A stretch of DNA of 64,000 nt. Source: an uncultured Coriobacteriales bacterium (GTDB lineage Bacteria > Actinomycetota > Coriobacteriia > Coriobacteriales > UMGS124). Made by a program: the position numbers and the translations under genes. The DNA lies in the NCBI GenBank assembly GCA_934636245.1, contig CAKUAI010000003.1, positions 120,305 to 184,304 on the forward strand. Direction: 5' to 3'. Below the pieces are notes generated by a model. The model ran no database searches and was not told the DNA's origin. It saw only the letters and a program-made list of their open reading frames with translations. Each line of letters begins with the position of its first letter. Positions within the stretch are counted from its first letter, which is position 1. Shown piece by piece: positions 5,894-53,652 of this stretch.

Positions 5894-7642
5894 TTACGCC
5901 CCAGCGACGACGTTCTTGCCAGCGACGTAGCCGTAGAACAGGCCCATGGAGCGGGCGATGCCGGCCACGGCGATGGGGTACTGCACGGTGAAGCGGCTGC
6001 CCTGGATGTTGCCGGCGACGTAGAGGCCGGGGATGATCTTGCGGTCGCGGTCGTAGACGTGGCACTCCTCGTCGCTTTCAAGGCCGCCCACGCATGCCAG
6101 CGATGCGGCCGGGCTGAAGGTCGACGCATAGAACGGGCCGGTCTCGATGGGGAAGAGGCGCTTGGAGCTTTTGCCGAAGTCCTCGTCATAGCCACCTGCG
6201 CACAGCTCGTTGTAACGCTCGACTGCCTTGGCTGCGGCTTCGGCGTCGATGTCGAGCTGGGCAAAAAGCTCCTCGAGCGTGTCACCCTTGACGAGGGTTC
6301 CCTGCTCGACGCCGTCCTCGACGGCCTTGGGATAGATGATGGCCTCGGGCTCAATCATCGACTCGGTGATGCTCGCCTGATCATCGTCGACGTAGTAGCT
6401 CTTGGAGCCATGCGCAGGGGGCATGAAGGGAATTGCGGCAGGCCAGTTGGCGTCGAAAATCATGTAGCCTGTCATGTCGCGCTGGATCTCGAGCTGGTTT
6501 TCAAGCTGCTGGCCGGGAACCTCCTCGTTCATAAAGCGGTTGCCGTCCTTGTTGAGCAGCAGGAACGGCGTGCAACCCAGGGGACCCGAACCCATGTGGT
6601 GAATCATGAGGGCGTGGCGCAGCTGGATCATCGCGCCGGCCCAGTCGCCCATGACCAGGCCCTCGCCCTGTGCCACAGGGTCACCGTTGGGGTCGCGGAA
6701 CATGCCCATGCGCATGTTGCCGTTGTAAATCTGCTCGGGCAGGAAGAACTTGACGAACTGGTCGTTGGCAACGTAGTCGCCACAGGCCAGCACGACGCCC
6801 TTCGAGGCGGTCGCCTTGATGTACTTGCCGGTGTTGTAATTGTAGGCGTACACGCCGGTGACGCGGCCCGAATCGTCTTTGATGAGCTGCTCGACGCGCG
6901 TCTCGTAGTAACCCTTGCCACCGTTCTCCTCGGCGTATTCGAGCGCCATGGCGTCAAGCTCGCGGCCGCAGATGGCAGCGGAAGTGGGGTAGGTGGGGTA
7001 GGCCTCCTGCGTGTAGTCGTACTCCTCGGGCTGAGGCCAGCACAGAGGGGTCACGTAGTGGTCCTGGTCGCCGTTGGGCGGGAAGTCGTACATGTCCTTG
7101 CAGATGTAAATGTCGGGAGCGATTTTGAAGTACCAGTCGAACACGTCGCCTACCTCGTCGAACCAGCGCGTGTAGATGGAACGCTTCGCGAAGTAGCCGC
7201 CCTCGTCCATCTCGTGGTTGACAACCTCGTCGCGGTCGAGAATGCCGTAGTTGCCCCAAACCTTGTTAGCTTCGGAATTGATGATGGCGAACTGACGACC
7301 CGGCGCCGTGTTGCCCGTCGTCTTCTCGAACCAGACGACCTCGGCACCCTCTTCAACGGCGGCGCGGATTGCAGTGCAGCCGGCGATGCCGCAGCCCACA
7401 ACGATGACCTCGGTGTCTACCTCTTCCTCGACCATGTCGTCGGTAATTGCAGGCGGTTCGGCGGCCCAGGGATAGTCGGGGCGGGTGCCGTTGGGTGCCG
7501 CAGGGGCGCTGTCCTGGCCATCGCCTGCGGGAGGCTCGCCTGCGGGTGCCTCTTCGGCCAGGGCAACCGAGGCGGCGGCGATGCTTGCGCCAGCGGCGCC
7601 TGCTGCGGCGATAAACGTACGGCGGTTGAGCGCTGTGTTCAT
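5894..7642 (-). CDS. Tat-exported FAD-dependent oxidoreductase, fumarate reductase/flavocytochrome c flavoprotein family (substrate unknown)
   Basis: ATG 7642 (aa 79 of track ORF 5894..7876) gives MNTALNRRTFIAAAGAAGASIAAASVALA. Dinucleotide fold VIVVGCGIAGCTAIRAAVEEGAEVVWFEK. C-terminal IPGLYVAGN motif. Confidence 0.85.
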   Translation of the reverse strand: MNTALNRRTFIAAAGAAGASIAAASVALAEEAPAGEPPAGDGQDSAPAAPNGTRPDYPWAAEPPAITDDMVEEEVDTEVIVVGCGIAGCTAIRAAVEEGAEVVWFEKTTGNTAPGRQFAIINSEANKVWGNYGILDRDEVVNHEMDEGGYFAKRSIYTRWFDEVGDVFDWYFKIAPDIYICKDMYDFPPNGDQDHYVTPLCWPQPEEYDYTQEAYPTYPTSAAICGRELDAMALEYAEENGGKGYYETRVEQLIKDDSGRVTGVYAYNYNTGKYIKATASKGVVLACGDYVANDQFVKFFLPEQIYNGNMRMGMFRDPNGDPVAQGEGLVMGDWAGAMIQLRHALMIHHMGSGPLGCTPFLLLNKDGNRFMNEEVPGQQLENQLEIQRDMTGYMIFDANWPAAIPFMPPAHGSKSYYVDDDQASITESMIEPEAIIYPKAVEDGVEQGTLVKGDTLEELFAQLDIDAEAAAKAVERYNELCAGGYDEDFGKSSKRLFPIETGPFYASTFSPAASLACVGGLESDEECHVYDRDRKIIPGLYVAGNIQGSRFTVQYPIAVAGIARSMGLFYGYVAGKNVVAGA

Positions 7643-7863
7643 AACGATCCCCAATCTCTTTATGAATACCTGCTGCGTCGTGCAATGGGCAAACCGAAAT
7701 GCCTCTCGCACGCCTTGAAGCATAGAAAGCCCTGGCAGCTGAAACGGGTGAAAGTCGCATTGCGCGATGCTAGCGATGCGGCCGGGCGCGCGCCTTGGGG
7801 TCACCCGCAAGTTAGTATTGACGGTGCGTGAGCTGGAACAATCCATAGGATACTGACGACGCC

Positions 7864-7902
7864 GAATAACATACATTTCAACTCATCAAATGTATGTTAT
7901 TC
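7864..7902. promoter_or_regulatory. perfect 15-bp inverted repeat (candidate operator) in the divergent promoter region
   Basis: GAATAACATACATTT (7864-7878), 9-nt spacer, then AAATGTATGTTATTC (7888-7902). A third half-site GAAATGTATGTTG lies at 7938-7950. It sits in an AT-rich patch between the divergent reductase genes starting at 7642 (-) and 8288 (+). Confidence 0.55.
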
Positions 7903-8287
7903 GACAAAACCCCAGTTGACGAAAATCAAAATCTTCCGAAATGTATGTTGTTTTGCGCGCGGCCATCTAACCCTCCGTCCTGCGGGTTTCTTTCGCGCCC
8001 CAACCACCCCTGCCCGCGTCACGTGATTTCACGAAATCGGCGGTTTGAAAACAAGTTGAAAGTCATTCGCACATTTCGGGTGTGGCACCGGTCGGGCGGT
8101 AAGCGTTCTATATGCCCTGCGCGCCGATGCGCTGGCAGATGCATGCCTTGGCGCGAGGCGCGCACGCAAGGTTGGAGCCAGGCATGGCTCCATTCCCTGT
8201 GGACAGACGGGCGGGATAAAAACCTGCTCCCAAAGAGATTGGCAAGCGAGCCGCATGGCCCGCTTGACCGCGAAAGGAGTCTCACAC

Positions 8288-10150
8288 ATGTCCAAGATGA
8301 CGCGCAGGTTGTTTGTTGGGGCCGCTGCCGCAAGCGGTGTTGCGGCGATTTCGGCTTCTATTGCCCTGGCCGACGAAGCGAAGAAGGACGAGGCGGCGCA
8401 GGCCGACGCCCCCGCCGAGGACGCGGGCGAAGAAGACAAGAAGCCGGCTGGCCCCGGCGGCATGAGCGACCCTATCGACAGCGCCCGCGAGCTTTACAAG
8501 GGCTGGCTCGGCGAGGCCCCTCAGATTTCCGATGACGACATCGTCGAGACCTACGACGCTGATGTCGTCATTCTCGGTGGCGGCCATGCCGGCACGCAGT
8601 GCGCCAAGGAGGCCGCGAAGGCCGGCGCCAAGGTCGCGGTTCTCGACCAGCAGGCTCAGGACATGTTCATGTTCTACGGCGAGGACATCGGAACCTTCAA
8701 CTCGCAGTACGTGCAGGACATGGGCTACGGCCCCTACGACGAGCAGGACGTTCTGGCACAGTGGGAGCGCACCTGCGGCTACCGTGCCAACCCCGAGCTC
8801 GTGCTCACCTACATCCGTAACTCCGGCGCCATGATCGACGACGCCATTGCCATCTGCCAGGAGAAGGACCCCTCCATCCTGACGAACATGAACGTGCAGC
8901 AGCCCGACGTCACCTATTGGGTCGACAAGTCCCAGCCGTGCGACATGGGCAACTTCAAGACCTACGTGGGTACGTTCTGCATGCGCTCCGAGATCCTCGA
9001 CGAGGTCGCCGAGGGCGTGGGCGCCTACTCCACCATCGGCAAGCTCGAGGATTGCTGCCGCGAGGTGGCCGAGGCCAACGGTGCCACCTGGTATTACGAG
9101 ACGTCCGCCGTGTGTCTCGTGAAGGACGGCGACAAGGTCGTGGGTGCCATCGCCACCAACGCCGACGGTCAGTACGTGCGCTTCAACGCCGCCAAGGCCG
9201 TCGTCATCGCCACGGGCGCCTTCCAGAACTGTCAGCCCATGATGGCCGAGTTCTACAGCGAGGCCAAGGAGCTGCAGGCCAAGAACGGCATCGCCGCCTA
9301 CACGTCCACCGACATTCCCGAGTCCGGACGCGACACCGGCATCGGCCATCGCATGGGCTGCTGGGCAGGCGGCCGCATGGAGGCCGGCCCCATGGCATCG
9401 CTTGCCAACGTGTCGGCACCCGGCCCCTTCGGCTTTGCTCCCACGCTCATCCTCAACCGCGACGGCAAGCGCTTCATGAACGAGGCTGACTTCAACGCAA
9501 TGGGTAATATGATCAACCGCCAGCCCAAGGGCATCTACTGCAACCTGTTCGACGCCAACTACCGTGACATCATCGCGCGCGGCGGCACGAACCACGGCGG
9601 CGTCGACTTCGGCCAGGCAACCTACGTGGAGCAGTGGACCGAGGACATGACGCATGTCGCAGGCGCCGGCGCCGAGGGCTACGTGGTGCGCCACGGCTGC
9701 CTTACCGAGCGCGCCGACATGGGCAAGACTCCCGTGTACGGTGCCCAGACCCTGGAGGAGCTGGCCGGCTACCTGGGCTACGAGGGCGAGGCCGTCGACA
9801 ACTTCGTGGCGAGCGTCGAGCGCTACAACGAGCTGTGCGAGGCCGGCAAGGATGACGACTTCGGCAAGAAGGCCGACTTCATGCTGCCCATTGCCACACC
9901 TCCCTTCTACGGCTCGGTCGCCGATTCCTCCACGCAGGCTGGCACTGCCGTGTCGCTGGGCGGTCTGGTGACCGACACCACCTTCAACGTTCTGGGCGAC
10001 GACGACTGCGGCATTGAGGGCCTCTACGCCATCGGCAACTGCTGCGGCGGTCGCTACGCCCTCACCTACCCGGGCATTCTTGCGGGCAACTCGATCGGAA
10101 TGGCGATGACCAACGGCTATGTCTGCGGCCAGGTAGTCGCTGCGCTGTAG
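8288..10150 (+). CDS. Tat-exported FAD-dependent oxidoreductase, fumarate reductase flavoprotein family (substrate unknown)
   Basis: ATG 8288 with AAGGAG at 8274-8279. Signal peptide MSKMTRRLFVGAAAASGVAAISASIALA. FAD motif VVILGGGHAGTQCAKEAAKAGAKVAVLDQ. C-terminal IEGLYAIGNCCGG. Confidence 0.85.
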   Translation: MSKMTRRLFVGAAAASGVAAISASIALADEAKKDEAAQADAPAEDAGEEDKKPAGPGGMSDPIDSARELYKGWLGEAPQISDDDIVETYDADVVILGGGHAGTQCAKEAAKAGAKVAVLDQQAQDMFMFYGEDIGTFNSQYVQDMGYGPYDEQDVLAQWERTCGYRANPELVLTYIRNSGAMIDDAIAICQEKDPSILTNMNVQQPDVTYWVDKSQPCDMGNFKTYVGTFCMRSEILDEVAEGVGAYSTIGKLEDCCREVAEANGATWYYETSAVCLVKDGDKVVGAIATNADGQYVRFNAAKAVVIATGAFQNCQPMMAEFYSEAKELQAKNGIAAYTSTDIPESGRDTGIGHRMGCWAGGRMEAGPMASLANVSAPGPFGFAPTLILNRDGKRFMNEADFNAMGNMINRQPKGIYCNLFDANYRDIIARGGTNHGGVDFGQATYVEQWTEDMTHVAGAGAEGYVVRHGCLTERADMGKTPVYGAQTLEELAGYLGYEGEAVDNFVASVERYNELCEAGKDDDFGKKADFMLPIATPPFYGSVADSSTQAGTAVSLGGLVTDTTFNVLGDDDCGIEGLYAIGNCCGGRYALTYPGILAGNSIGMAMTNGYVCGQVVAAL

Positions 10151-10262
10151 GGTGCGCTAGCCTGATGCGCCCCGTTCCACAGACGCTCATGTACTCTAGT
10201 ACACATCGCACCTGTGCGCTTTGCGCATCAGAACCCGTGCTTCTGAGGGGATGTGGAACCTG
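10151..10262. repeat. single REP-like unit related to the 39150-39690 tandem array
   Basis: ..GCTCATGTACTCTAGTACACATCGCACCTGTGCGCTTTGCGCATCAGAACCCGTGCTTCTGAGGGGATGTGGAACC shares the CTCATGTACTCCAGTA..GCGC..TTGCGCATCAGAACCCGC..GAACC pattern of the array units. Confidence 0.6.
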
Positions 10263-10401
10263 GCTTCTTGAGTGATTGGTCGACCCCGCTCGAGCACTGC
10301 GAGGAGCGTGCTTGGGCGGGGTCGATTTGCGTTTGGGGAGCATCGAGGGCGTTGGGGCTATTCGCGCGACGATGCGGACGGCTCAATGGGCGGGCCAGCT
10401 C

Positions 10402-10546
10402 GAAAAAAGCTGCGAGTTTGCGTTTTAATCTGGCCGGGTGAGGTAGCCGACGGCCTGTGCTTGGCGTTTTGCCTAGTAGATAGGTTGCTGTTTTGGCGGG
10501 CCACTCAGCTTGATGAATCAAAACGCAAACATGCACGATTTTTTGC
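10402..10546. mobile_element. MITE-like repeat, family 1, copy 2
   Basis: GAAAAAAGCTGCGAGTTTGCGTTTTAAT ... ATCAAAACGCAAACATGCACGATTTTTTGC, with central CCTAGTAGAT. Confidence 0.75.
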
Positions 10547-10947
10547 CAGCCTCGATTGTCCGCGAGCCCGCGAGGCGCTTTCTTCTACACCCCGCGGGTC
10601 CCGACATGTGTTGCCTGCACTGCGTTTCATCCTCGCTGGCCTGGTGCTGTCCTCTGGTGCGTCTAACTGATACAAAAGATGGGTGCAATGTGTTATCTGG
10701 CTGATGGATGGCATGGGGCACTATGTCTCACTCGCTTGTTTTCGTTGGGCGTGGAGCCTGCTGCTTGTGGTGTACTCACATACCTCATTGCCTTGTAATT
10801 GCGTTGATCGTGCAGGTTGCCGGGCGTGCTTTGCGCGATACAGGATGACATTCGATGGACGAAGCAAAGAGGGCCACCATGCGCGACGCGGTCATCTTTG
10901 CTTGGCGCAGGTCGGGTTATACACATGATGTCGCGCGTCGCCTCGTG

Positions 10948-14040: not shown

Positions 14041-14180
14041 GGCTGCTCGTCTCCTTCCCCAGGGGGTATGGCCGTTGTTGTGCAATTGTAGCAGGCGGCC
14101 GGGGCGATTAAAGTAGAGAGACGGCTTGCTCTTGGTGAATTACCCGCAAAGCAGTGTCGCACAGTGGCATTCGGCAATAC

Positions 14181-14249
14181 AAAGGGGCGGGTGCATTGCG
14201 TCATTTGACTGGTAGACGACTTGGGATGACACGTTGTACCCGTCCCTTT
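14181..14249. repeat. imperfect long hairpin element (box family), copy beta
   Basis: AAAGGGGCGGGTGCATTGCGTCAT - TTGACTGGTAGACGACTTGGG - ATGACACGTTGTACCCGTCCCTTT. About 19 of 24 arm positions are complementary. Confidence 0.65.
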
Positions 14250-14254
14250 CGTTA

Positions 14255-14329
14255 TTGTTGGCGGGCGACTCGATTGGAATGGCAGTGATCAATGGTTGCG
14301 TCTGCGGCTGGGTAGTCGCCGCGCTGTAG
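14255..14329 (+). pseudogene. orphan 3-prime relic (24 codons + stop) of a flavoprotein reductase gene
   Basis: Translates LLAGDSIGMAVINGCVCGWVVAAL*, compared with the end of 8288..10150, ILAGNSIGMAMTNGYVCGQVVAAL*. There is no upstream coding continuation. Confidence 0.8.
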
Positions 14330-14614
14330 CTTGCGAGGGCTTCGGCCTACTTTTCGTTCCGAGAGGCTTGCGTGCTCCGGCATGCATCGCTTTTGGACGC
14401 CTTGCAGGTCAGGGCCTGTGTTTTAGATAGCCGCGGGACGCCGTTTCCCGTGCAATCAATCGTTCCCGTTCAGGCGCACACGCGGCGCTTGGACGGGGGT
14501 GATCTGCGTTTGGGGCTGTTGGAATGACGCAAGGGGACGGGTGCAATGTGCCGTTTCTCGGGTCAGATGATGGTTTTGGAGCAACGTCGAGGAGCGGCGA
14601 TTGAACGGGGCCTC

Positions 14615-14757
14615 CAAAAATGCCGCATGTTTGCGTTTTAATCTGGCCGAATGGAGTAGCCAGCTATCCGCGCTTATCGTTTTGCCTGGTAGCCGGGTTG
14701 CCCCTTCTGCTGCCTACTCCGCTTGCTAAATTAAAACGCAAACATGCGCGATTTTTC
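14615..14757. mobile_element. MITE-like repeat, family 1, copy 3
   Basis: CAAAAATGCCGCATGTTTGCGTTTTAAT ... AATTAAAACGCAAACATGCGCGATTTTTC, with central CCTGGTAGCC. Confidence 0.75.
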
Positions 14758-14948
14758 TGTCACCCGACCAGCCGTGCTACAGGCGACCTGCCTGCAGGGC
14801 CCTCTTATGCGTTGGGGAAGTGCTCGCATGAGCTGTTTTCGGTAACGTAGGGAAGGAACGCCTTTTGGCCCAAGCCACCCTCTTTATATACTCTCCAGGT
14901 TACTGAGTCGTATCATTGCATCGACTGTTGTGATGACGGGGGAGTGGT

Positions 14949-16430
14949 ATGGGCACTGAAACGATCGGCAATCTTCAAGATGAACCGCGCAAGAATGCTT
15001 TCAAGTCTCCAGAAGTGCTTGCTGCCGTACTTTGTATTGCCTTGCAGCAAATGGGTACCGCATTGCTTACCTCGACATATGCTCAGAGCGCCGGTGCTGT
15101 TTTTGCATGGGAGGCTCCGATATCGTTCGGCTTCTCCGTTGTGCTCATTGCGATGCTGTACGTTCTCGTGTCTCGCTATCCCGGCAAAATTGCCGACAAG
15201 GCGTGGACGTTGGTCGGTGTGTTCGTCAACATACTGGGTGTATTTCTCATGGCGTTGTCATTGCGCACGGGTAGTATCGCCCTTGTCGTCGCGGGCGGTT
15301 GCCTGCGCGGGGCGGGCGGAGTGTGGACCATGTATATGGTTGGCCTGCTGCTTGTCGATATCGCTCGCACATACAGCGTCGCTGCCGTGCTTGGTGTTCT
15401 GGCGGCGGGCTGGGTTTTGGCCCTCCCAATTGAGGCGGCTGTTGCGAGCTTTACTTTAATGGGCAAGCTTGCCGTCGTTGCCTTCGTTCCCGCAATACTT
15501 GCAGTGCTGGCGTTCCCTGGATTTCATCGCGCAACTTTGCCCGCGCGTACTGCCGAGGCAAGCGCGAGCATGCGCGTGACTGAGCCTAAGTCGTTCATTC
15601 CCTTGAGCAGCACTGTTTTCGTAATGCTTGCGCTACTCAAGACTGCATTCTGTTTTGCGTCTGATTTTACGCGTGCCGAGGCGGATGTGCGTTTGCCTGT
15701 CCTCATTGCGTTTGTGATTTGCGTTTCCGCAGTGACTGCGTTGCTTTCAGTGAGAGCCCGCCACGGCCGGCCGGTTCTGGGACTGCTCTACAGGATTACG
15801 CTTATCTGCGTGTTGACCGGATTTCTGCTTTATATTCCACTGGCTTTGGGGCCCTCGTCCATATCAACTTGGGGAGGCATTGCGCTGGGCATGGGAGGAG
15901 ATCTGGCGCGAATCTTGTCCTATGTGCTGCTGGTCGAAATCGCAAAACGCAACCCTATTGACGCTCCGGGCGTTTGCCTCGTTGTGACGGGGGCCAACAC
16001 GCTCGGCGGTCTCATAGGAACTTTGTTTTCAAGCCTTGCAGCATCACTTTTGAATTCCCCTCTCTCTTATCAGTTGCTGCTCATTCTACTTGTTCTGGTT
16101 GTCATTGTTATAAACCTTGCCATGCCCAATGCGCTCGCGTTCGACGAGACGGTCAATGAGGTCGATTGCCCAAGCGAGGCTTCTGGCGCGGGTCTTATCG
16201 CGTCCTTTGAGGAATCCGTTTCGAAGTTGGCCGATAGTTTTGCCTTGACTCCGCGCGAGGCTGAGGCCATGGCCTTGCTTGCCCGGGGCCATGGAGCCCA
16301 ATCTATTCAGGAGCACATGGGGATATCGCATAACACGGTGAAGATGCACATTCGCAATGTGTATGCCAAGCTTGGTGTGCACTCGCGCCAGGAGCTCATT
16401 GACTTGGTCGAGGGCAACACGACGGCCTGA
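14949..16430 (+). CDS. LuxR-family transcriptional regulator with a polytopic N-terminal membrane domain
   Basis: About 10-12 hydrophobic helices followed by a C-terminal GerE/LuxR HTH: LTPREAEAMALLARGHGAQSIQEHMGISHNTVKMHIRNVYAKLGVHSRQELIDLV. Confidence 0.85.
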   Translation: MGTETIGNLQDEPRKNAFKSPEVLAAVLCIALQQMGTALLTSTYAQSAGAVFAWEAPISFGFSVVLIAMLYVLVSRYPGKIADKAWTLVGVFVNILGVFLMALSLRTGSIALVVAGGCLRGAGGVWTMYMVGLLLVDIARTYSVAAVLGVLAAGWVLALPIEAAVASFTLMGKLAVVAFVPAILAVLAFPGFHRATLPARTAEASASMRVTEPKSFIPLSSTVFVMLALLKTAFCFASDFTRAEADVRLPVLIAFVICVSAVTALLSVRARHGRPVLGLLYRITLICVLTGFLLYIPLALGPSSISTWGGIALGMGGDLARILSYVLLVEIAKRNPIDAPGVCLVVTGANTLGGLIGTLFSSLAASLLNSPLSYQLLLILLVLVVIVINLAMPNALAFDETVNEVDCPSEASGAGLIASFEESVSKLADSFALTPREAEAMALLARGHGAQSIQEHMGISHNTVKMHIRNVYAKLGVHSRQELIDLVEGNTTA

Positions 16431-18808: not shown

Positions 18809-18837
18809 AGCTAACAAGCTAAGTTTACGAGACAAAG

Positions 18838-18900
18838 AGACGGGTGCACTGTGTCATTTGACTGGTAGAGGCCCTGGTATGACATGCTGTACCCGGCCTT
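18838..18900. repeat. imperfect long hairpin element (box family), copy gamma
   Basis: GACGGGTGCACTGTGTCAT - TTGACTGGTAGAGGCCCTGGT - ATGACATGCTGTACCCGGCC. Same loop start (TTGACTGGTAGA) as the 14181 copy. Confidence 0.65.
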
Positions 18901-18907
18901 CTCGTCA

Positions 18908-18982
18908 TTGCTGGCCGGCAACTCGATCGGTATGGCCATGACCAACGGTTATGTCTGCGGCCGGGTAGTCACCGCGGTGTAG
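18908..18982 (+). pseudogene. orphan 3-prime relic (24 codons + stop) of a flavoprotein reductase gene
   Basis: Translates LLAGNSIGMAMTNGYVCGRVVTAV*. It begins at the same codon as the 14255 relic. It is followed by a 49-nt stretch (19001-19049) identical to 10268-10316. Confidence 0.8.
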
Positions 18983-19076
18983 GTTGCGCTGGCCTCGCCT
19001 TTGAGTGATTGGTCGACCCCGCTCGAGCACTGCGAGGAGCGTGCTTGGGTAGGGTCGATCTGCGTTTGGGACTGTT

Positions 19077-19113
19077 GGAATGACGCAAAGGGACGGGTGC
19101 AATGCGTCATTCC
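19077..19113. repeat. perfect 11-bp stem hairpin containing the 24-nt box
   Basis: GGAATGACGCA - aagggacgggtgcaa - TGCGTCATTCC. A degenerate copy is at 14521-14557. Confidence 0.7.
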
Positions 19114-19148
19114 GCAGTGATGTGGGAGGCTGGCGGTTGGGCCAGCCC

Positions 19149-19292
19149 AAATAAGACGCGAGTTTGCGTTTTAATCTGACCGGGTGAGGTAGCGGGTTGC
19201 CTGTGCTCGGCGTTTTGCCTGGTAGATAGGTTGCTGTTTTGGCGAGCTACTCGGCTTGCTGAATTAAAACGCAAACATGCATGATTTTTTAC
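19149..19292. mobile_element. MITE-like repeat, family 1, copy 4
   Basis: AAATAAGACGCGAGTTTGCGTTTTAAT ... AATTAAAACGCAAACATGCATGATTTTTTAC, with central CCTGGTAGAT. Confidence 0.75.
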
Positions 19293-19464
19293 CGGCTCCC
19301 GGTTGGTTGCGGGGCCGTTGGACCTCGAGCTGCTTGTTCCTCGTGTCCGGCGCGCCCGGTCATGCTTCGCCTCCATTACGTTTCGTCCCCACTGGCCGGC
19401 GCCGCCTTCCTGCGCGTCTATAATGCCTCCTGGCAAGACCCTGATCTGGGAGAGAGGACGCACA

Positions 19465-41629: not shown

Positions 41630-41896
41630 TTAGGGGCAGCAGCCGCGCCGATTATCTGCGCTGCGAGAGCCCCGCAGGGTCAGGTCCCGCTTCTGATGAT
41701 GTCGCATCATTGCTTGCAATTGGATATTGTTGGAGAGCGATGAATCGAAAAGTCCATCGAAGGCCTCTATGCTATCGGTACATGCTCGGGTCGCTATTAC
41801 TCGGGCAACTATCCCGTTTACCTGGTGGGCAATTGCCTGGGTCGCAATATGACCTTTGGCTACCAGGTCATTAAGGAGATTGCCGGCGAGGCGTAA
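41630..41896 (+). pseudogene. 3-prime relic of a flavoprotein reductase gene (in-frame TGA, 5-prime part missing)
   Basis: 41744..41896 translates IEKSIEGLYAIGTCSGRYYSGNYPVYLVGNCLGRNMTFGYQVIKEIAGEA*, compared with IEGLYAIGNCCGGRYALTYPGILAGNSIGMAMTNGYVCGQVVAAL* at 8288..10150. Upstream, ..SHHCLQLDIVGER-TGA resembles ..CDEHCQVMDTADEP of 37410..39149. It begins right after MITE copy B. Confidence 0.7.
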
Positions 41897-45003: not shown

Positions 45004-45040
45004 AAAAGAGCCGCCAGTCCTTGAGACTAGCGGCTCTTAT
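45004..45040. terminator. hairpin between the TetR gene and the tRNA
   Basis: AAAAGAGCCGC - 15 nt - GCGGCTCTTAT. A/T runs on both sides make it potentially bidirectional. Confidence 0.6.
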
Positions 45041-45049
45041 CATTTCAAG

Positions 45050-45484: not shown

Positions 45485-46399
45485 TCATCGTGCTTGTCTT
45501 GTTGATTTAAGCGCATCGAACACGGCGCGCACATGAGGGTTCGGCTCTCGACGCCGACGGACGACGCATAGGTCAAACGTGTCCTGGGTGTCGCTGAGTG
45601 GCCGGGATACGATATTTGGCCCCATGGTGGCATACCCAGGGAAATACACCCCGAATACAACCTGATCAGAAGATAATGGTGTGCAAATAGCGTGCTCATC
45701 GCAATAGAGGTGCGGCTCGCTGATGTCATGCTTGCGACAGATGCGTGCTACATATTCGTGATACCCAGCACGTCCTATCAGGGGATATGTCAGAAGTGTT
45801 TGCCCTCGGATGTTGTCAAATGTAATGTGCGGAAGCGATGCGAGCGGATGGCCTCGATAACAGGAGACGCCAAACGGCAAGTTCATCAGGTGCTCGACAC
45901 GCAGGCGTCGGTCATTGCGTAAAAATGCCCCATATGAAAAGGCGAGCAGTATATCGGCCTGGTCTTCAAAAAGAAGATCGATACTGTCTCTCAGCCCAAC
46001 GTCGCGAATGGGCACGGTAAGGGGGGTCCCATTTTCAATCACGGCATCCCGTGCATCGGCAACGAGACGAGAGAGGTCACTGTTGAGCAAGGGTCCTGCT
46101 ACTCGCACCGTTGCATTGGCCTCACGCGTCAATCCTGCGTTTTGCGCTGATCGCACGGAAGCAAGCGCTGTCTCATAAGATTCGACAACATCTCGCAGTC
46201 CATCTACGAACAGCTCGCCCTCTATGGTCAAATCGACGCTCGCGGTATCGCGGTCAAAAATGCGGAAACCAACCTCCCGCTCGGCGGCTGCCACATGTTT
46301 GCTCAGCGTTGGTTGGGTGACAAAAAGCTCTTCAGCTGCATCGCTGAAACTGAGCCTGTCAGCAACGGCTATCAACTCACGGCAAGAGCGAATATCCAC
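45485..46399 (-). CDS. LysR-family transcriptional regulator
   Basis: MDIRSCRELIAVADRLSFSDAAEELFVTQPTLSKHVAAAEREVGFRIFDR. Divergent from the reductase gene at 46608. Confidence 0.85.
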   Translation of the reverse strand: MDIRSCRELIAVADRLSFSDAAEELFVTQPTLSKHVAAAEREVGFRIFDRDTASVDLTIEGELFVDGLRDVVESYETALASVRSAQNAGLTREANATVRVAGPLLNSDLSRLVADARDAVIENGTPLTVPIRDVGLRDSIDLLFEDQADILLAFSYGAFLRNDRRLRVEHLMNLPFGVSCYRGHPLASLPHITFDNIRGQTLLTYPLIGRAGYHEYVARICRKHDISEPHLYCDEHAICTPLSSDQVVFGVYFPGYATMGPNIVSRPLSDTQDTFDLCVVRRRREPNPHVRAVFDALKSTRQAR

Positions 46400-46607: not shown

Positions 46608-48293
46608 ATGACTGCAAACGTTATGTCACGCAGGGGTTTCGCCGGAGCCGTGGGTGCGGCTGGTATAGGCATGGCAGCGACGGGCTTTGTCAATGCCGCC
46701 ACAGCTCGCGCTGATGAGGCTTCTGTCTTGATTGGAAACCTTCCCGCAGAATGGGATGCTGAAGCCGATGTTGTTGTCATCGGCATGGGTGGAGCTGGCT
46801 TGTCTGCTGCCATTGCAGCAAAGCTCGCTGGAGCAGAATCGGTCATTACACTTGAAGCGGCCCCTGAAGAAGAGGCCGGCGGCACGACTCGTGTTTCGGG
46901 CGACATGTTGATGATTCCGGATGACGTGGATGGTGCGGTTGCTTATCAGACGGCCTTGAATGGCCCTTACGCCGTCGACCCTGATTGCATGAGGGCATGG
47001 GCAGAAGGTGTGACGGCCAACTATGACTGGCTCACGCAGGATCTTGGTTTTACGTTGGGCGATGCGGCGGCCGGTCGTCCCGAGTTTCCCGGCACTGTCG
47101 GTGGTGAGCACATCAAGACCTACTATGTCGACGGCATCTGTGGCATGAGCTCGCTGTGGATTCCCCTCATGGACAAGGCAAATGAGCTGGGCGTTGAGGC
47201 GCTGTATAACGCTCGCGCTGTCAGGCTTATTCACAACTATGAGACGAAGGAAGTCTACGGAGTTCTGACTGAGGACGGTCGAGCCATCAAGGCACGCAAG
47301 GGTGTGGTAATGGCATGCGGCGGTTTTGCTGGCAATCCTGAGATGATGCAGGATTATATGGCGTCCATGGGCTGCCCCAACACGTTCTTCCTTGGTTCTC
47401 CGTACAATGTGGGCGATGGTGTGAAGATGGCCCAACAGATCGGCGCCGATCTTTGGCACATGAATAGCTATGCGGGTGCTAGCACCTGCGTTCGAGCTAT
47501 GAGTGCTGATTCCATCATCTGCGACATTCCCTATCCCACCGGGCATGACTATATTTTTGTCAACGGTGAGGGAAAGCGTTTCATGTACGAGGAAAAGCGT
47601 TCCATTGTCCGCCATGGTAAGCAAAAGGACAAGGGAATCTGGCCTCTGCTTACCGTGCCTTCTCCTTCCTGGATGATTCTGGGAGGCAACAAGAGCGGCA
47701 CTATTGATATTCTGGGTATGGTCACCTATATGGATTGGCCTGTCATCATGGGCAAGGGGCTCAAGACGAATCAAGAGCTCATCGATGCCGGCATTATGTT
47801 CAAGGCCGACACAATCGAAGAGCTTGCCGAAAAAATTGGTTTCCCGCCCGAGACGCTTGCCGAGACCGTTGCGACATACAACCAGTATTGCGCTGACGGT
47901 GCCGATCCTGAATTTGGTCGTGGCGAAGAGGTCTATACCAGTAACCTGTTTAATGCCGTTGAAGGCAAGGACCAAATTTCCAATGCAGGCGAAGGCGAGG
48001 GAGGCGGCGAGGAGGAGCTTGCCATCATGGCGTTTGACCTTGAGCCGCTTGAGGGCCCGTTCTATGGCATCGAAATCGCCTTGGGTATTCTGAACAGCCA
48101 GGGCGGCGCCCGCCGCAATGGCCTGTGCGAGGTGCTTGATACGGATGGTCAGCCCATCCCGCGTCTCTACTCTGCTGGAGAGTTCGGCAGTATTTACGCT
48201 TATATGTACAATGGCGGCGGCAATATTTCCGAAGCCGTGGCAACTGGTCGCGTTGCCGGCCAACAGGCGGCCGGTCTTGACAGCTGGGAATAA
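46608..48293 (+). CDS. Tat-exported FAD-dependent oxidoreductase, fumarate reductase flavoprotein family (substrate unknown)
   Basis: ATG 46608 gives MTANVMSRRGFAGAVGAAGIGMAATGFVNAATARA. FAD motif VVVIGMGGAGLSAAIAAKLAGA. C-terminal IPRLYSAGE. Confidence 0.85.
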   Translation: MTANVMSRRGFAGAVGAAGIGMAATGFVNAATARADEASVLIGNLPAEWDAEADVVVIGMGGAGLSAAIAAKLAGAESVITLEAAPEEEAGGTTRVSGDMLMIPDDVDGAVAYQTALNGPYAVDPDCMRAWAEGVTANYDWLTQDLGFTLGDAAAGRPEFPGTVGGEHIKTYYVDGICGMSSLWIPLMDKANELGVEALYNARAVRLIHNYETKEVYGVLTEDGRAIKARKGVVMACGGFAGNPEMMQDYMASMGCPNTFFLGSPYNVGDGVKMAQQIGADLWHMNSYAGASTCVRAMSADSIICDIPYPTGHDYIFVNGEGKRFMYEEKRSIVRHGKQKDKGIWPLLTVPSPSWMILGGNKSGTIDILGMVTYMDWPVIMGKGLKTNQELIDAGIMFKADTIEELAEKIGFPPETLAETVATYNQYCADGADPEFGRGEEVYTSNLFNAVEGKDQISNAGEGEGGGEEELAIMAFDLEPLEGPFYGIEIALGILNSQGGARRNGLCEVLDTDGQPIPRLYSAGEFGSIYAYMYNGGGNISEAVATGRVAGQQAAGLDSWE

Positions 48294-48445
48294 TGTTCGC
48301 ACGGTAATTTCTGCATGAATTGCCCCTGCGCCTGCCGTATGGGAATCGGACGCAGGGGCACGTGTCTGTAGGGTCCATTGCGAACAACTGCCTGTGAGCG
48401 GGTTCTCGATGCTGCCTTGGTGTTTGATAGTGACTTGCGGTTCCA

Positions 48446-48494
48446 TGAAAATCCCCCAGTAGCGTATCCAGCAAGAAGCGTGCTACTGGGGGAT
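48446..48494 (-). terminator. hairpin downstream of 48525..49232
   Basis: ATCCCCCAGTAGC - 18 nt - GCTACTGGGGGAT, a 13-bp perfect stem, followed by a short T-run on the minus strand. Confidence 0.5.
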
Positions 48495-48524
48495 GCTTTA
48501 TCACTGATCTTTTGAGTGTGTATC

Positions 48525-50437: not shown

Positions 50438-51955
50438 TTATCGGGTCGATTGAACGCGGGTTTCAAGCAATGCGATGAGCTCCTCGCGGCTATGTGTATC
50501 GGTTTTGGCGTAGATGTTGCGTAGGTGCGTGCGAAGTGTACTTTCAGTTATGCACGCAGTATCGCAAATGAAAGTATTACTGTTTCCTTGGAGTACGAGC
50601 AACGAAATCTCTCGCTCGCGTTCAGAGAGTCCTAGGCCACCGCAAACATAGGTCATTTCTTCAAGCGTGATTGCGCTCAAGTCCATCGAGGATGCCTTAC
50701 TGGGCGTTTCATATCCACCGCGTTCTTGGGCTTCTTCCATTTCAAGGCGTTTGACCACCTCGCCATCTTCGAGAAGGAATACCGATACGAGTACGGTGAC
50801 AGCGATGATGGCGGCGGCTGTCCCTACGAGGGACAGGCCAGATAGGTTGAGTTGAGAGCAGAGAATTTCGCTGGTGGTACTGCAGGTAGTGAGGGCAATT
50901 TGGCCGACGGCGAACACGAATGCGCCGCCCCTTGGGTCGTGCTCGCCTATACGTGCCCAGAGCGTCCAGGTAAAAACGCGGAAAAACGCCCAGGCGCCGC
51001 CAATGGCCAAGGCCTCATAGTGTTGACTGCCTGGCTCTAGTACCAAGGTAAGGAGCAGACAGCCAATGACGAATGGGGTAATGAGGCGGTAAAGCCGGGA
51101 GAAACTGCCAATTTTACCTTGTGTGACCTGGGCGATTGCCAAGATAACAAGGCAAACACAGATGCCTGCGACAAGTGTATAAAACTCAGTGGAGACGGTC
51201 GTTTTTGTCTCTGAGAGATGGTTGGTGGCGATAAAGACTGCGCCGAGGGCACCCGTGGCGATGAAGGGCTTGAGGCTAGGGAGCGCATGGGTGGAGGAGC
51301 CGTCCCTTGAACCGTGGCTTGATTCCTCAGTGCCCCAGCCTTTTAAAGCCTCAGTTCTCAGGGCCAACAGAGTGACTCCTGATAGCAAGGGGAGTATGGG
51401 TCTAAAAACCAAGGCCGCCCCAGGAGAGAGGCATGCCTCTATCAAGCAGATACCGAACGAAATGCCGTAGCCGCCCGCAGTACAGCCAAGCATGTGAGAG
51501 GCGCCACAGGAGCTTAGGAGTTCTCCCCACAGCACGACAAGCCCCGCGCTCGTAGCGAACAGAATTCTTCCGATGGCAACGCCAACAAAGTGCGCCTCGT
51601 CGCCGATCCACCCACAAAGATAAAGCAGCACGGTTCCAAGGGCTGGTCCCATACAGGCGATAGAAATGAGCCAGCGGCGCTCAATAAGCATGCCAGGTTT
51701 CCGGTGCGTGCTCACAGCGAAAACAAGCAGCAGGAATAAGAGAAGGGTAGTGGCGGCATAGCCCCATATGCCGAGTGTCTCACGCACGCCGGACAGAGGG
51801 GCGGGGAAAAGAGTGGGCGAAATATCAATAGTTTGCCAACCGAGGTAGCAGCCGATGCCAACGGACATAAGCATGCGAGCGGCCGGACTGAAATCGGTTT
51901 TTCCACGCGCCCTGTGCGGGGAATTGTTCTCGATGTCCCGCGCCTCTTCTGCCAT
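50438..51955 (-). CDS. LuxR-family transcriptional regulator with a polytopic N-terminal membrane domain
   Basis: About 10-12 TM helices followed by the HTH LSEREREISLLVLQGNSNTFICDTACITESTLRTHLRNIYAKTDTHSREELIALL. Divergent from the reductase gene at 52213. Confidence 0.85.
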   Translation of the reverse strand: MAEEARDIENNSPHRARGKTDFSPAARMLMSVGIGCYLGWQTIDISPTLFPAPLSGVRETLGIWGYAATTLLLFLLLVFAVSTHRKPGMLIERRWLISIACMGPALGTVLLYLCGWIGDEAHFVGVAIGRILFATSAGLVVLWGELLSSCGASHMLGCTAGGYGISFGICLIEACLSPGAALVFRPILPLLSGVTLLALRTEALKGWGTEESSHGSRDGSSTHALPSLKPFIATGALGAVFIATNHLSETKTTVSTEFYTLVAGICVCLVILAIAQVTQGKIGSFSRLYRLITPFVIGCLLLTLVLEPGSQHYEALAIGGAWAFFRVFTWTLWARIGEHDPRGGAFVFAVGQIALTTCSTTSEILCSQLNLSGLSLVGTAAAIIAVTVLVSVFLLEDGEVVKRLEMEEAQERGGYETPSKASSMDLSAITLEEMTYVCGGLGLSEREREISLLVLQGNSNTFICDTACITESTLRTHLRNIYAKTDTHSREELIALLETRVQSTR

Positions 51956-52212
51956 TACGGTGACTCCCTAGCGTGCATCGTGAATAAAATCGACAAATAT
52001 CCAGCTCATAGACCGTGCGAGAAAAGCAATACCTCACAGTCTACCTCACGTGGGGACATACGGTACCTTTCATTTTCACGCAGGTTCATCGGCTTGACGT
52101 ATGGATTGATGGCTCGGCGCGGACGATGCTTTGAATTGTCCGACCGACGCATTCGCGCCTGTCGTTTTTTTGGCCTGGGCTGGTGTGCCCATCAATATAA
52201 GGAGGCTCTACT

Positions 52213-53652
52213 ATGAATGACAGCACTTTGAACCGTCGCTCTTTTGTTGCCCTGTCGTGCGCTGCTGCTGGTATGGTTGCGGCTGCTGGTACCGGTACTG
52301 CCAAGGCTGATGACGTTAAGGCCCAGGCTGTTGCTTTGGGCAATGCCGACGTCAACTTTGCCGAAGAAGTCGAAGTCCTCATTGTTGGTGCTGGCCTCTC
52401 TGGCATGATGGCTGCCTGGGAGATTGCCTCTGCGGGGCATCAGGTTCTCATTGCTGAGCAGAATGGCTTCCTTGGTGGCGACGCCATTTACTCTGCCGCT
52501 TGCATGATGTGCACTACTGCGGAGCTTACCAAGGAGGAGCGCCCTGAGAAGTACATGGATGAAGAAACCATCCGCACGCTTTTTGCTCCCTACTACGATT
52601 CCGAGCTTGCCCTTGACAAACTTGTTCAAAATCAGATGTGGGCAGGCAAGTGGATTGACCTGCTGCATTATGAATGGGGCTACGAGTTCCAGCCCCGCAT
52701 GGAGTGCCCCTATCTCCAGGCGTACTTCCCGAAGGATGGTATCTGCACTATGTATACCGCCTTTGACCTCATGGATCAGAAGATTCAAGAGGCCGGTGCG
52801 ACGTATGAGTACGACATTGAGATGACCACCCTTATCGTCGACGCCGAGGGTACTGTGTGTGGCGCACGCTTCCTGCAGAAGGACGGCACCTACAAGGACA
52901 TCAAGGCGGGCACTGTCGTTATTGCAACGGGCGGTTATGTCTCCAACCAGGAGTGGATGACCCAGTACGCGCCCGACTACGCCGATCTGGGCAACATCGT
53001 CTCCGGCCGCACTGGCGAGGGCATCAAGGCGGGTCTGGCAGCCGGTGGCACTCTGTTCGGCATGGGGCCCGTGGGCAACCTCAATCCTAAGTACGAGGCT
53101 GGCCACATGCTGGGCGTTCACTACCCCATCCTGGGCATTCTTCCCAATGGCAAGCGTTTTTACTGCGAGACTGCTGTTCACAACGCGGCCACCGGTGCCA
53201 TCGCCGCCGGCTATCACGAGTGGTATACCATTTTTGATGACGTCGCGATGAATGGTGTTGATCAGGAGCTCCTCAAGCATGCGGGAGATGCGGTTCAGAC
53301 CGCCGCTTCCTTTGAGGAGCTGGCTGAAATGACGGGTATTCATCCCGATTACCTGCAGGCTACCTTCGATGAATGGGCTTCGATTTGCAACGGTGAAGCA
53401 GAGGACCCCTTTGGTCGCACGCTTTTCCTGCAGGAGCTGCAGCCGCCGTTCTACTTCATCCGTAACGTTCCCGTGCGCTACAAGTCCCTTGGCGGCCTGA
53501 ACGTCGACCTGGAATACCATGTGCTCGATGCCGACGAGAACCCCATTCCCAACCTTTATGCCTGCGGCTGCGCTGCTGGCACTGAAGATATCTGCCCCGC
53601 TGCCGCTTCCGGCATGATTGTGGGCACGACGGTGGTTAACGATCTGGCATAA
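52213..53652 (+). CDS. Tat-exported FAD-dependent oxidoreductase, fumarate reductase flavoprotein family (substrate unknown)
   Basis: AAGGAGG RBS. Signal peptide MNDSTLNRRSFVALSCAAAGMVAAAGTGTAKA. FAD motif VLIVGAGLSGMMAAWEIASAGHQVLIAEQ. C-terminal IPNLYACG. Confidence 0.85.
   Translation: MNDSTLNRRSFVALSCAAAGMVAAAGTGTAKADDVKAQAVALGNADVNFAEEVEVLIVGAGLSGMMAAWEIASAGHQVLIAEQNGFLGGDAIYSAACMMCTTAELTKEERPEKYMDEETIRTLFAPYYDSELALDKLVQNQMWAGKWIDLLHYEWGYEFQPRMECPYLQAYFPKDGICTMYTAFDLMDQKIQEAGATYEYDIEMTTLIVDAEGTVCGARFLQKDGTYKDIKAGTVVIATGGYVSNQEWMTQYAPDYADLGNIVSGRTGEGIKAGLAAGGTLFGMGPVGNLNPKYEAGHMLGVHYPILGILPNGKRFYCETAVHNAATGAIAAGYHEWYTIFDDVAMNGVDQELLKHAGDAVQTAASFEELAEMTGIHPDYLQATFDEWASICNGEAEDPFGRTLFLQELQPPFYFIRNVPVRYKSLGGLNVDLEYHVLDADENPIPNLYACGCAAGTEDICPAAASGMIVGTTVVNDLA

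Follow-up and report, generated by a model that had tools for sequence, protein, structure and literature searches.

A strain-variable cluster of eight paralogous, predicted exported flavin reductases beside LysR-type and membrane LuxR-type regulators in an uncultured Coriobacteriales bacterium

The locus described here is a 64,000-nucleotide stretch (64 kb, referred to throughout as the window) of contig CAKUAI010000003.1, positions 120,305 to 184,304 of the forward strand, in assembly GCA_934636245.1 of an uncultured Coriobacteriales bacterium. It carries eight copies of a flavoprotein gene, designated R1–R8 (R1–R7 intact, R8 interrupted), interspersed with transcriptional regulators of the LysR type and of a membrane-embedded LuxR type (Table 1). 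All eight products match the Pfam family FAD_binding_2 (PF00890; FAD, flavin adenine dinucleotide) across the whole catalytic domain, at 86–135 bits (E 1e-24 to 4e-39) against a gathering score of 20.4 bits. A tblastn search of the window with the eight proteins returned exactly three extra C-terminal fragments, at about 14237-14317, 18878-18964 and 41693-41893. Pfam, translation and tblastn thus bear out the inventory proposed in an initial annotation of this DNA: seven intact genes, one copy broken by a TAG codon and three 3′ relics.

Table 1. Reductase genes, regulators, repeat modules and related features, in window coordinates (aa, amino acids; nt, nucleotides; TM, transmembrane)
Feature	Position	Strand	Description
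R1	5894..7642	-	Intact, 582 aa; PF00890 E 8.5e-32; Tat-type signal; regulator not adjacent
Operator-like palindrome	7865..7952		AATAACATACATTT-N9-AAATGTATGTTATT plus third half-site, between R1 and R2
R2	8288..10150	+	Intact reductase, 620 aa; PF00890; last ~70 nt (from 10079) lie in repeat module copy A
Repeat module copy A	10079..10550		Last ~70 nt of R2, its stop and downstream DNA; families D1, D7, D12
Repeat module copy B	14179..14763	+	Relic 1 (~14216-14329), tail and D1 palindromic element; families D6, D7, D14, D1
LuxR_a	14949..16430	+	GerE 2.9e-16, residues 433-486; upstream of R3, same strand; 12 TM helices
R3	16699..18690	+	663 aa; PF04205 2.5e-9 (nt 16843-17049, N-terminal) and PF00890 6.3e-34
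Repeat module copy C	18832..19296	+	Relic 2 (~18869-18982), tail and D1 element, directly after R3
LuxR_b	22209..23684	-	GerE 2.9e-17; multiple TM helices; divergent from R4
R4	23884..25950	+	688 aa; PF00890 and C-terminal FMN_bind (nt 25708-25932); 46% identical to R3
LysR_a	31087..32157	+	HTH_1 and LysR_substrate; 356 aa; convergent with R8, overlaps its 3′ end
R8	32070..33620	-	Reductase pseudogene; PF00890; one in-frame TAG, codon 42
LysR_b	33758..34651	-	HTH_1 and LysR_substrate; upstream of R8, same strand; arrangement kept in other contigs
LysR_c	36325..37248	-	HTH_1 and LysR_substrate; divergent from R5
R5	37410..39149	+	Intact, 579 aa; PF00890 9.7e-35; RK-variant signal
Relic 3	41693..41896	+	C-terminal stretch of ~50 codons (IEGLYAIG...NYP...) from another lost paralogue; edge of low-GC segment
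LysR_d	45485..46399	-	HTH_1 and LysR_substrate; divergent from R6
R6	46608..48293	+	Intact, 561 aa; PF00890 4e-39; inside low-GC segment
LuxR_c	50438..51955	-	GerE 1e-9; 12 TM helices; divergent from R7
R7	52213..53652	+	Shortest reductase, 479 aa; PF00890 1.2e-29; lacks Tyr-Pro segment after GLYAxG

Sequence identity between the paralogues is 22–30% for every pair except R3 and R4 (46–47%). An alignment of all eight keeps the glycine columns of the N-terminal GxGxxG motif and of the C-terminal G-L-Y-x-x-G motif invariant, with a highly variable, indel-rich middle, in agreement with the earlier proposal of a common GxGxxG fold and a strongly divergent substrate region. The C-terminal motif, which had been ascribed to every copy in the form (I/V)xGLYAxG, is degenerate in R8 alone (GRLFVLG).

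Each of the eight N-termini has the layout of an export signal: a short polar stretch, an S/T-R-R-x-F motif (R-K in R5), 20–25 uncharged residues and AxA, as in R1 (MNTALNRRTFIAAAG...ALA, followed by EE). A purine-rich ribosome-binding site precedes the start codons of the reductase copies. Assignment of these signals to the Tat route (twin-arginine translocation) rests on a motif rule, namely RR and, after a stretch of 13 or more uncharged residues, AxA, because the Pfam TAT_signal model, with a cut-off of 22.7 bits, is sub-threshold or silent; the twin arginine, previously attributed to all copies, occurs in seven of the eight and is RK in R5. The best TAT_signal score in the window, 18 bits, belongs to a 154-aa protein with a clear Tat signal and without a Pfam family, encoded on the minus strand at 26094-26558, convergent with R4 and present in all strains.

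The placement of three membrane LuxR and four LysR regulators in the initial annotation is upheld by Pfam matches to GerE, HTH_1 and LysR_substrate, as is the adjacency of the LuxR genes to R3, R4 and R7. All three LuxR proteins end in a PF00196 (GerE/LuxR) helix-turn-helix (HTH) domain, at 38–62 bits against a cut-off of 23.5 bits; the start codon of LuxR_b is uncertain, with proteins of 491, 497 or 539 aa called on other contigs. The proposed LysR partnerships hold for LysR_c with R5, for LysR_d with R6 and probably for LysR_b, upstream of R8. Of these, LysR_c/R5 and LysR_d/R6 show the classical divergent LysR layout, and LysR_b and R8 form a tandem. A TAAC-N5-GTTA (T-N11-A) box lies between LysR_c and R5, and this pair is 97–98% conserved in the related contig L016. 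The suggested second partner of R8, LysR_a, is doubtful because it converges on R8, overlaps it and is divergent from a VTT gene; from this arrangement LysR_a probably serves the divergent VTT/transglutaminase genes rather than R8. In the metagenome contig L060 the LysR_a allele is 323 aa long and does not overlap R8.

The statement that every reductase has its own sensor-regulator fails at one end of the cluster, where no regulator gene adjoins R1 or R2. These two genes diverge across a shared 645-bp intergenic region that holds a perfect 14-nt inverted repeat with a third half-site (Table 1), a pattern with three matches in the window, all of them here, against 0.07 expected. The palindrome (7865-7952) is unique in the window and is a likely operator, to which a putative regulator encoded elsewhere would bind.

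Two of the pairs, LysR_d/R6 and LuxR_a/R3, are co-inherited in other genera. Orthologues of R6 that are 65–72% identical occur in Rubneribacter, Raoultibacter and Eggerthella sinensis, and an orthologue is also present in Gordonibacter; beside the 66%-identical orthologue on the Eggerthellaceae-like contig L068 lies a LysR gene whose product is 47% identical to LysR_d. In relatives, homologues 81–82% identical to R3 sit at a different locus and are followed by HGD-D, CBAH and ABC-F genes; upstream of one (L103) is a 12-TM LuxR 51% identical to LuxR_a, and upstream of another (L101) a 222-aa Trans_reg_C protein. A homologue 61–62% identical is found in Faecalibacterium, where the F. prausnitzii gene, seen on 187 contigs, adjoins a histidine kinase and an OmpR-type regulator (L064-L067). 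Since R3 homologues adjoin a 12-TM LuxR, a Trans_reg_C protein or a two-component system, regulators appear to have been swapped around a conserved enzyme.

The membrane LuxR sensors had been called mechanistically almost unstudied, which does not do justice to published work: the transmembrane LuxR family has 83 members in Eggerthella lenta, with flavin enzymes close to 50 of these (Dong et al. 2022, PMC9734109), and three regulators of the family, DadR, HcdR and CadR, have been dissected genetically as substrate-dependent activators of adjacent enzyme genes that lose activation when the TM domain is removed (PMC9734109). In all three window proteins, hydropathy gives about 8–12 hydrophobic segments N-terminal to the HTH, with about 11–12 in LuxR_b. 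LuxR_a, modelled with AlphaFold2 from 25 sequences (mean pLDDT 84, pTM 0.75), has 6+6 long helices followed by a four-helix HTH, and the model of LuxR_c, the most divergent of the three, has 12 TM helices in the same layout (pLDDT 74). Searched against the PDB with Foldseek, each of the two models returned only transporters of the major facilitator superfamily (MFS) among its best 50 matches (E 1e-5 to 9e-4, probability 1.0, target-normalised TM-score 0.37–0.65, mostly above 0.45), including VMAT1/2, MCT8, FLVCR, ferroportin, GLUT3, NorA, FucP, MelB and SLC37. A profile of the TM domain alone found 693 cluster representatives among 1.84 billion, and the best 150 of these are almost all 450–560 aa long, the length of sensor plus HTH, and are not transporters; GerE is present in 39 of 42 sampled family members. 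The sensor is therefore a Pfam-orphan domain fused almost exclusively to the LuxR HTH.

That this domain adopts an MFS fold is, on these models, a reasonable prediction, and neither Dong et al. (PMC9734109) nor the other literature searched mentions a transporter fold for 12-TM LuxR proteins. From the modelled fold we infer a transceptor-like mechanism for the membrane LuxRs. A further-reaching proposal is that the membrane LuxR sensors of Coriobacteriia are MFS-derived or convergent transceptors that would hold the acceptor in the 6+6 cavity and pass a rocker-switch movement to the HTH, that an enzyme can persist while its sensor is replaced, and that the acceptor of R3 would be a widespread human-gut compound sensed by three unrelated devices; we offer this tentatively, as an idea more easily doubted than accepted at present.

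A profile built from the eight copies matches the flavocytochrome c fumarate reductases of Shewanella, the urocanate reductase UrdA and the 3-ketosteroid dehydrogenase KstD about equally (E 1e-50 to 1e-67). Taken singly, the copies find their best solved-structure relatives at only E 1e-20 to 1e-28, from 1.9e-28 for R6 to 6e-21 for R7, with nothing below 1e-25 for R3. No copy reaches any NCBIfam cut-off, whether of vinyl phenol reductase VprA, KstD, TcuA, flavocytochrome c (TIGR01813) or the PRK07121 subfamilies, the best scores being 71–162 bits against thresholds of 285–1000: VprA is the top model for R1–R5 (98–159 bits against 600), KstD gives R6 162 bits against 789, and TIGR01813 scores 79–156 bits against 285. 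Profile alignment to 1D4D, 1QO8, 6T85 and 7P18 shows that the catalytic set of fumarate and urocanate reductases (Fcc3 and UrdA, clade 1 of Little et al.) is absent from all copies, this set being the HxTMGG histidine and two arginines, one in …RD… as proton donor and one in GxNRLG as carboxylate clamp; R8 retains SRSRD alone from this set, and R6 has an invariant RH elsewhere. Because both arginines and the histidine are lacking, none of R1–R8 is, as judged from these aligned residues, a fumarate or urocanate reductase, and by NCBIfam scores, distance from solved structures and missing catalytic residues no copy matches a characterised family.

What the copies have instead is a tyrosine shortly after GLYAxG, followed by proline in R1–R4 and by asparagine in R5 and R6, in a segment that aligns with 'AYPGAGG' of KstD/AcmB (7P18). 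In cinnamate-reductase clades 2–4, Tyr replaces Arg at alignment position 6 and is essential by mutagenesis (Little et al., bioRxiv 10.1101/2022.12.26.521950), and by alignment the tyrosine of R1–R6 matches that of these Tyr-type clades. Family alignments give further candidate catalytic residues that are invariant within clades: D417-R418, Y429, Y472 and Y636-P637 for R3/R4, and R324, H336, N496, Q498 and Y534 for R6.

These comparisons bear on the reading that part or all of the set are mere orthologues of enzymes with assigned substrates (CrdA-D, IrdA, SrdA, RrdA, UrdA or Cgr2 of E. lenta, or Cir of H. filiformis), in which case the cluster would encode no new specificity. The Tyr-type site of R1–R6 points in that direction, as do the R6 orthologues in Eggerthella sinensis, Raoultibacter and Rubneribacter and the one on L068 with its like LysR partner. 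Yet the equivalog and subfamily thresholds of NCBIfam are missed by a wide margin (the best, VprA, gives 106–159 bits against 600), the urocanate/fumarate residues are absent from every copy, Cgr2 is reported to occur in cgr+ E. lenta alone and to have no homologue that reaches 28% identity (Koppel et al., PMC5953540), and substrate cannot be predicted even from >30% identity between members of one clade (Little et al., bioRxiv 10.1101/2022.12.26.521950). We regard such orthology as unlikely; it would be compatible with a role in respiration, and R6 is its most likely case. The substrates of R1–R8 are not readable from sequence. Beside R6 lie two genes for BD-FAE (feruloyl/acetyl-esterase-type) hydrolases, and the proximity of esterases that may release hydroxycinnamates suggests a possible cinnamate-type substrate for R6.

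Two of the copies carry a predicted point of electron entry. R3 and R4 contain an FMN_bind domain (PF04205; FMN, flavin mononucleotide) above the Pfam cut-off, N-terminal in R3 (38.1 bits) and C-terminal in R4 (38.2 bits), with the flavinylation motifs DTTTGAT and DGVTMAT, respectively. An [S/T]GA[S/T]-like motif is the target of ApbE, and it is through such a flavinylated site that electrons pass from membrane components to extracytosolic enzymes of the fumarate-reductase-like kind; by its sequence the R3 motif fits an ApbE site of this kind. No ApbE gene was found within the 64-kb window. As the two FMN_bind domains share 38% identity (tblastn), the domain has changed ends between two paralogues that are themselves 46% identical. 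A candidate second form of electron input is found on L068, where the gene after the R6 orthologue encodes a 206-aa lipoprotein that has six CxxCH haem sites, a case of the 'modular flavinylation/cytochrome usage' described for the superfamily. In the window, CxxCH motifs occur only in a molybdoenzyme at 62475-63974 and in none of the proteins that adjoin the reductases.

A separate redox protein is encoded on the minus strand at 34816-35685: a 289-aa flavodoxin-like FMN_red/Flavodoxin_2 protein that bears a Tat-type signal (MSRRGFAQTMAAGAAALSALG) as well as a CxxCxxC motif and has a cytoplasmic paralogue at 19465-20091. Its predicted export is unusual because the family normally uses cytoplasmic NAD(P)H; from these features it could be an extracytoplasmic redox protein or an electron carrier for the neighbouring reductases.

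On the basis of family, export signals, domains and gene arrangement, we infer the following course of events. Each intact gene would yield an FAD enzyme of the soluble fumarate-reductase/urocanate-reductase/KstD superfamily, which would fold with its flavin in the cytoplasm and then leave through the Tat pathway; outside the membrane, it would reduce the C=C bond of a specific organic metabolite with electrons from the membrane electron-transport chain. In R3 and R4 these electrons would enter through the covalently flavinylated FMN_bind domain, and for the other copies the donor would be encoded elsewhere, a candidate being a small multihaem cytochrome c such as the one that follows the R6 orthologue. 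The substrate would switch on expression through the adjacent LysR (R5, R6 and probably R8) or the adjacent membrane LuxR (R3, R4 and R7); in the latter, the central cavity of the predicted MFS-like 12-helix domain presumably takes up the extracellular metabolite, and the domain would then signal to the DNA-binding domain at the inner face. We think it probable that the R copies are substrate-induced, Tat-exported extracytoplasmic ene-reductases for anaerobic respiration.

Several observations weigh against parts of this scheme. With regard to export, the R5 signal has S-R-K-S-F in place of RR (MQKNMSRKSFLAGAG), a variant kept in L016 and L054, and the TAT_signal hidden Markov model, run on isolated N-termini, gives only sub-threshold scores of 14–15 bits for R1 and R3 and no match for the other copies. 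With regard to electron input, Pfam finds no FMN_bind in R1, R2, R5, R6, R7 or R8, five of which are intact; no cytochrome or other donor gene adjoins R1, R2, R5, R6 or R7; tblastn finds no counterpart of the L068 cytochrome in the window; and the R4 motif has Met where Gly is usual, which makes its flavinylation less certain. The lack of a regulator beside R1 and R2 counts in the same sense for induction. With regard to sensing, the MFS likeness is confined to predicted structures, and the alignments behind the two models (LuxR_a, LuxR_c) overlap to a large extent; Pfam detects no MFS match in the three window LuxRs or in 42 family members, and hhalign of the sensor domain against the window's own MFS_1 protein gives a probability of 0.3%. 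Homology between sensor domain and MFS at the level of sequence, considered as a candidate, was rejected on these hhalign and Pfam results. Finally, with regard to the direction of catalysis, the C-terminal Tyr-Pro motif and the best NCBIfam match of R6 resemble 3-ketosteroid dehydrogenases, which are oxidative.

This last point could be pressed into a different account, in which the copies would be extracytoplasmic dehydrogenases or desaturases of KstD type, acting for example on steroids or bile acids and feeding electrons into the chain. The Tyr-Pro (R1–R4) or Tyr-Asn (R5, R6) segment aligns with the 3-oxosteroid 1-dehydrogenase 7P18, KstD models are among the top NCBIfam matches (PRK12844 being best for R6), and close homologues of R3 lie near a gene of the choloylglycine-hydrolase family. 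An oxidative role of this sort is nevertheless improbable because of the export signals and the FMN_bind domains: KstD-type enzymes are listed without a detected signal peptide or a respiratory reductase function, and FMN_bind is described as the electron entry point of reductases in this superfamily. Moreover, the Tyr-type clades are biochemically cinnamate reductases (Little et al., bioRxiv 10.1101/2022.12.26.521950), and all KstD-model scores fall 5- to 10-fold below the cut-offs. Reduction of an extracellular acceptor therefore stays the reading that we prefer.

The DNA between the genes records how the set has changed. Relics 1 and 2 each comprise the last ~37 codons of an R2-like gene; relic 1 is 63% identical to R2 residues 594-617, and relic 2 is 69% identical to R2 residues 590-615 (both by tblastn); in translation, the two have a common upstream stop and breakpoint (…FDW*). 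The shared truncation point implies that relics 1 and 2 are duplicates of one truncated gene end and not the outcome of independent gene deaths. Each is part of a ~0.5-kb module in which an R2-like 3′ end is followed by a tail and by a palindromic element of 115 nt, and intact R2 has a copy of this module attached as well; copies C and A are 87% (D7), 96% (D12) and 88% (D1) identical in their constituent families. Between module copies lie a TOTE-type primase-helicase gene (10948-14085) and the LuxR_a-R3 pair, which, by its position between duplicated copies, looks like a two-gene cassette. Strains that lack the TOTE or the LuxR_a-R3 cassette were not found through the FMNred1 and R3 contexts, all same-species contigs having an identical gene order. 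Relic 3 is recognised by tblastn with R2–R5 at E 4e-6 to 1e-4.

The palindromic element, D1, is dispersed, with copies of ~115 nt at 5365-5483, 10416-10534, 14629-14747 and 19162-19280 and at 30 further metagenome loci (L071-L100), mostly intergenic and on contigs of 55–67% GC. Its 14-nt termini (GTTTGCGTTTTAAT…ATTAAAACGCAAAC) enclose a conserved ATCTACCWGG at the centre, and runs of A/T flank the element. As a known RNA it was rejected, Rfam at gathering score finding only the tRNA and a permissive scan a single chance-level match; as a structured RNA it was likewise rejected, RNAalifold on 21 copies supporting the terminal stem only, with no covariation. Candidates are an element like a miniature inverted-repeat transposable element (MITE) or a repetitive extragenic palindrome (REP), a bidirectional terminator or a recombination site. 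A scan of 5–24.5 kb for promoter and terminator consensus sequences gave no excess over shuffles. Directly downstream of R5, at 39239-39658, are two tandem 210-nt repeats, 85% identical, whose sub-units resemble the DNA just past the R2 stop (10161-10247); the open reading frame called there (39241-39663) is probably not a gene.

Inactivation of R8 is due to a TGG-to-TAG change at nt 33495-33497, directly before the GxGxxG motif. An intact 516-aa allele exists in L060, a contig from Hadza/Nepal metagenomes, whereas seven contigs from other samples carry TAG. Between the alleles there are 26 nucleotide differences, but only five codons are changed (the TAG and four other amino acids). The inactivation is recent and polymorphic.

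Comparison with closely related metagenome-assembled genomes (MAGs) reveals gain or loss of whole pairs. A variable segment at ~39500-48500, with 49–58% GC against 62–66% in its flanks, contains a fast-evolving 394-aa protein, relic 3, the two esterase genes, a TetR gene, tRNA-Arg(ACG), LysR_d and R6. In the closely related MAGs L016, L011 and L009, R6, LysR_d, the TetR gene and the two esterase genes are absent, and only the tRNA is kept between g48525 and a 72%-identical homologue of g39989, the 394-aa gene. Integration of the segment as a tRNA-associated island was considered and rejected; because there is neither a duplicate of the tRNA-Arg 3′ end nor an integrase, we describe it only as a strain-variable low-GC segment. 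The LuxR_c/R7 pair is kept in L011 and in the more distant L012 and is deleted, along with the 7 kb after it, in L010 (MAG HRGM_Genome_3264), where the SBP_bac_5 gene abuts Hsp33 and a 9.2-kb block (50445-59658) is missing that comprises LuxR_c, R7, an ATP-binding cassette (ABC) transporter, an extracytoplasmic-function (ECF) sigma/anti-sigma pair and the Abi_2 gene. The reductase set turns over quickly, through cassette movement, regulator swapping, point inactivation and deletion.

Such turnover might be taken to mean that the cluster is largely a graveyard of paralogues drifting towards loss and mostly unexpressed or non-functional: one nonsense pseudogene and three relics lie within 48 kb, close relatives are without the R6 pair or the R7 pair, and five copies lack an adjacent electron-transfer partner. 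Against this, metagenome contigs in numbers from tens to hundreds, drawn from different cohorts, encode the seven intact proteins unchanged or at more than 90% identity; exact copies of window proteins come from human-gut metagenomes, in Hadza samples and other cohorts, and the exact R1 protein is present on 64 contigs. Cofactor motifs are intact throughout, the R8 alleles differ far more in nucleotides than in codons, and R3 is 61% conserved across phyla. We consider general decay very improbable, and maintained genes for respiratory reductases the better account of the cluster.

Other genes of the window are of interest in their own right. The 1,045-aa product of the primase-helicase gene between the module copies (10948-14085, minus strand) joins an archaeo-eukaryotic primase domain of the TOTE conflict system (E 1.5e-78) to a ResIII/DEAD helicase, and matches the PrimPol and PbeA-like models of PADLOC, making it a single-gene defence candidate. 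A second gene with PADLOC matches, albeit weak, encodes an Abi_2/AbiD-like abortive-infection protein (58461-59189, plus strand) and adjoins the ECF sigma/ABC block. At 61586-63974 on the minus strand, two adjacent Oxidored_molyb (sulfite-oxidase-type) proteins with signal peptides lie beside an SBP_bac_5 protein with a Tat signal; the larger of the two (499 aa, 62475-63974) has two CxxCH haem-binding motifs. At the opposite end, at 210-4324 on the plus strand, three consecutive proteins of 468, 383 and 286 aa have RR-containing signal or lipoprotein-like N-termini and match nothing in Pfam or PADLOC.

The arrangement as a whole has clear precedents. Flavin reductases number 65 in E. lenta (62 of them secreted), 47 in Adlercreutzia and 25–34 in Slackia_A; 64 E. 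lenta genes for flavin or molybdopterin reductases directly neighbour transmembrane regulators, acceptors induce the reductases, regulator types vary by lineage, and reductase gain and loss are convoluted (Little et al., bioRxiv 10.1101/2022.12.26.521950). PF00890 together with a signal peptide is the operational definition of a secreted 'respiratory-like' flavin reductase in Little et al. The initial annotation saw regulator–reductase pairs as the signature of substrate-inducible respiratory reductases in gut Coriobacteriia, and the pairing of a regulator with a signal-peptide-bearing PF00890 protein is indeed published for Eggerthellaceae, in which the inducer is usually also the substrate (Little et al., bioRxiv 10.1101/2022.12.26.521950; Dong et al., PMC9734109; Koppel et al., PMC5953540). 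The window shares with those arsenals the PF00890 domain, divergent paralogues below 30% identity, adjacent regulators and complex gain and loss, and has a predicted export signal on its copies; it differs in its host, an uncultured Coriobacteriales lineage (the Hsp33 gene of the window is 99% identical to that of MAGs UMGS124, UMGS1780, HRGM_Genome_3264 and MGYG-HGUT-00585), in that half of the pairings involve LysR, and in the absence of a neighbouring regulator for R1 and R2. It is a clear example of the published Eggerthellaceae-type 'respiratory-like flavin reductase' arsenal.

Comparison with individual systems sharpens this picture. R3 has the order of FMN_bind and FAD domains and the TGAT motif of Shewanella oneidensis UrdA and Listeria FrdA (6T85-6T88), and the eight-copy profile matches UrdA at 2.7e-62, but the catalytic Arg pair and the HxTMGG His are absent, FMN_bind is C-terminal in R4, and the signals are Tat-like, not of the Sec or lipoprotein type. 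Like the Cgr2/Cgr1 system of E. lenta (PMC5953540), the window combines Tat-predicted PF00890 flavoproteins with divergent active sites, LuxR-type regulators in the cluster and Cys-rich mature proteins (8–19 Cys in the window copies, 16 in Cgr2); by description it is set apart in that no multihaem cytochrome adjoins a reductase and that Cgr2 is reported as restricted to E. lenta. The window LuxRs resemble the 10–12-TM regulators DadR, HcdR and CadR (PMC9734109) in their C-terminal PF00196, 12-helix N-terminal domain, low sequence conservation and position beside a reductase gene, whereas those regulators control molybdopterin catechol dehydroxylases and the window LuxRs adjoin flavin reductases. 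With KstD and AcmB (4C3X, 7P18) and VprA (NF053717) the copies share a superfamily and, for KstD/AcmB, the Tyr-Pro segment, but scores of 98–162 bits against cut-offs of 600–789 indicate no orthology, and KstD has no detected signal peptide.

Novelty is modest because the arrangement and the membrane LuxR family have already been published; as the underlying principle, this family of regulators and the pattern of evolution are in print, the conceptual gain is small. New here are the predicted MFS fold of the sensor, the swapping of regulators around an R3 that is shared across phyla, and cassette-like movement together with recent inactivation. The practical value is a list of candidates, among which R3 is the best target because it is 61% conserved in Faecalibacterium prausnitzii, and R6 the second, since its LysR partner is conserved and other genera pair it with a cytochrome. 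The MFS-fold prediction could open a mechanistic question, that of a transporter-like domain driving transcription. If the proposed scheme is true, each intact pair would be a handle on a gut metabolite respired by a prevalent Coriobacteriales lineage, the regulator reporting the ligand and the enzyme the reaction.

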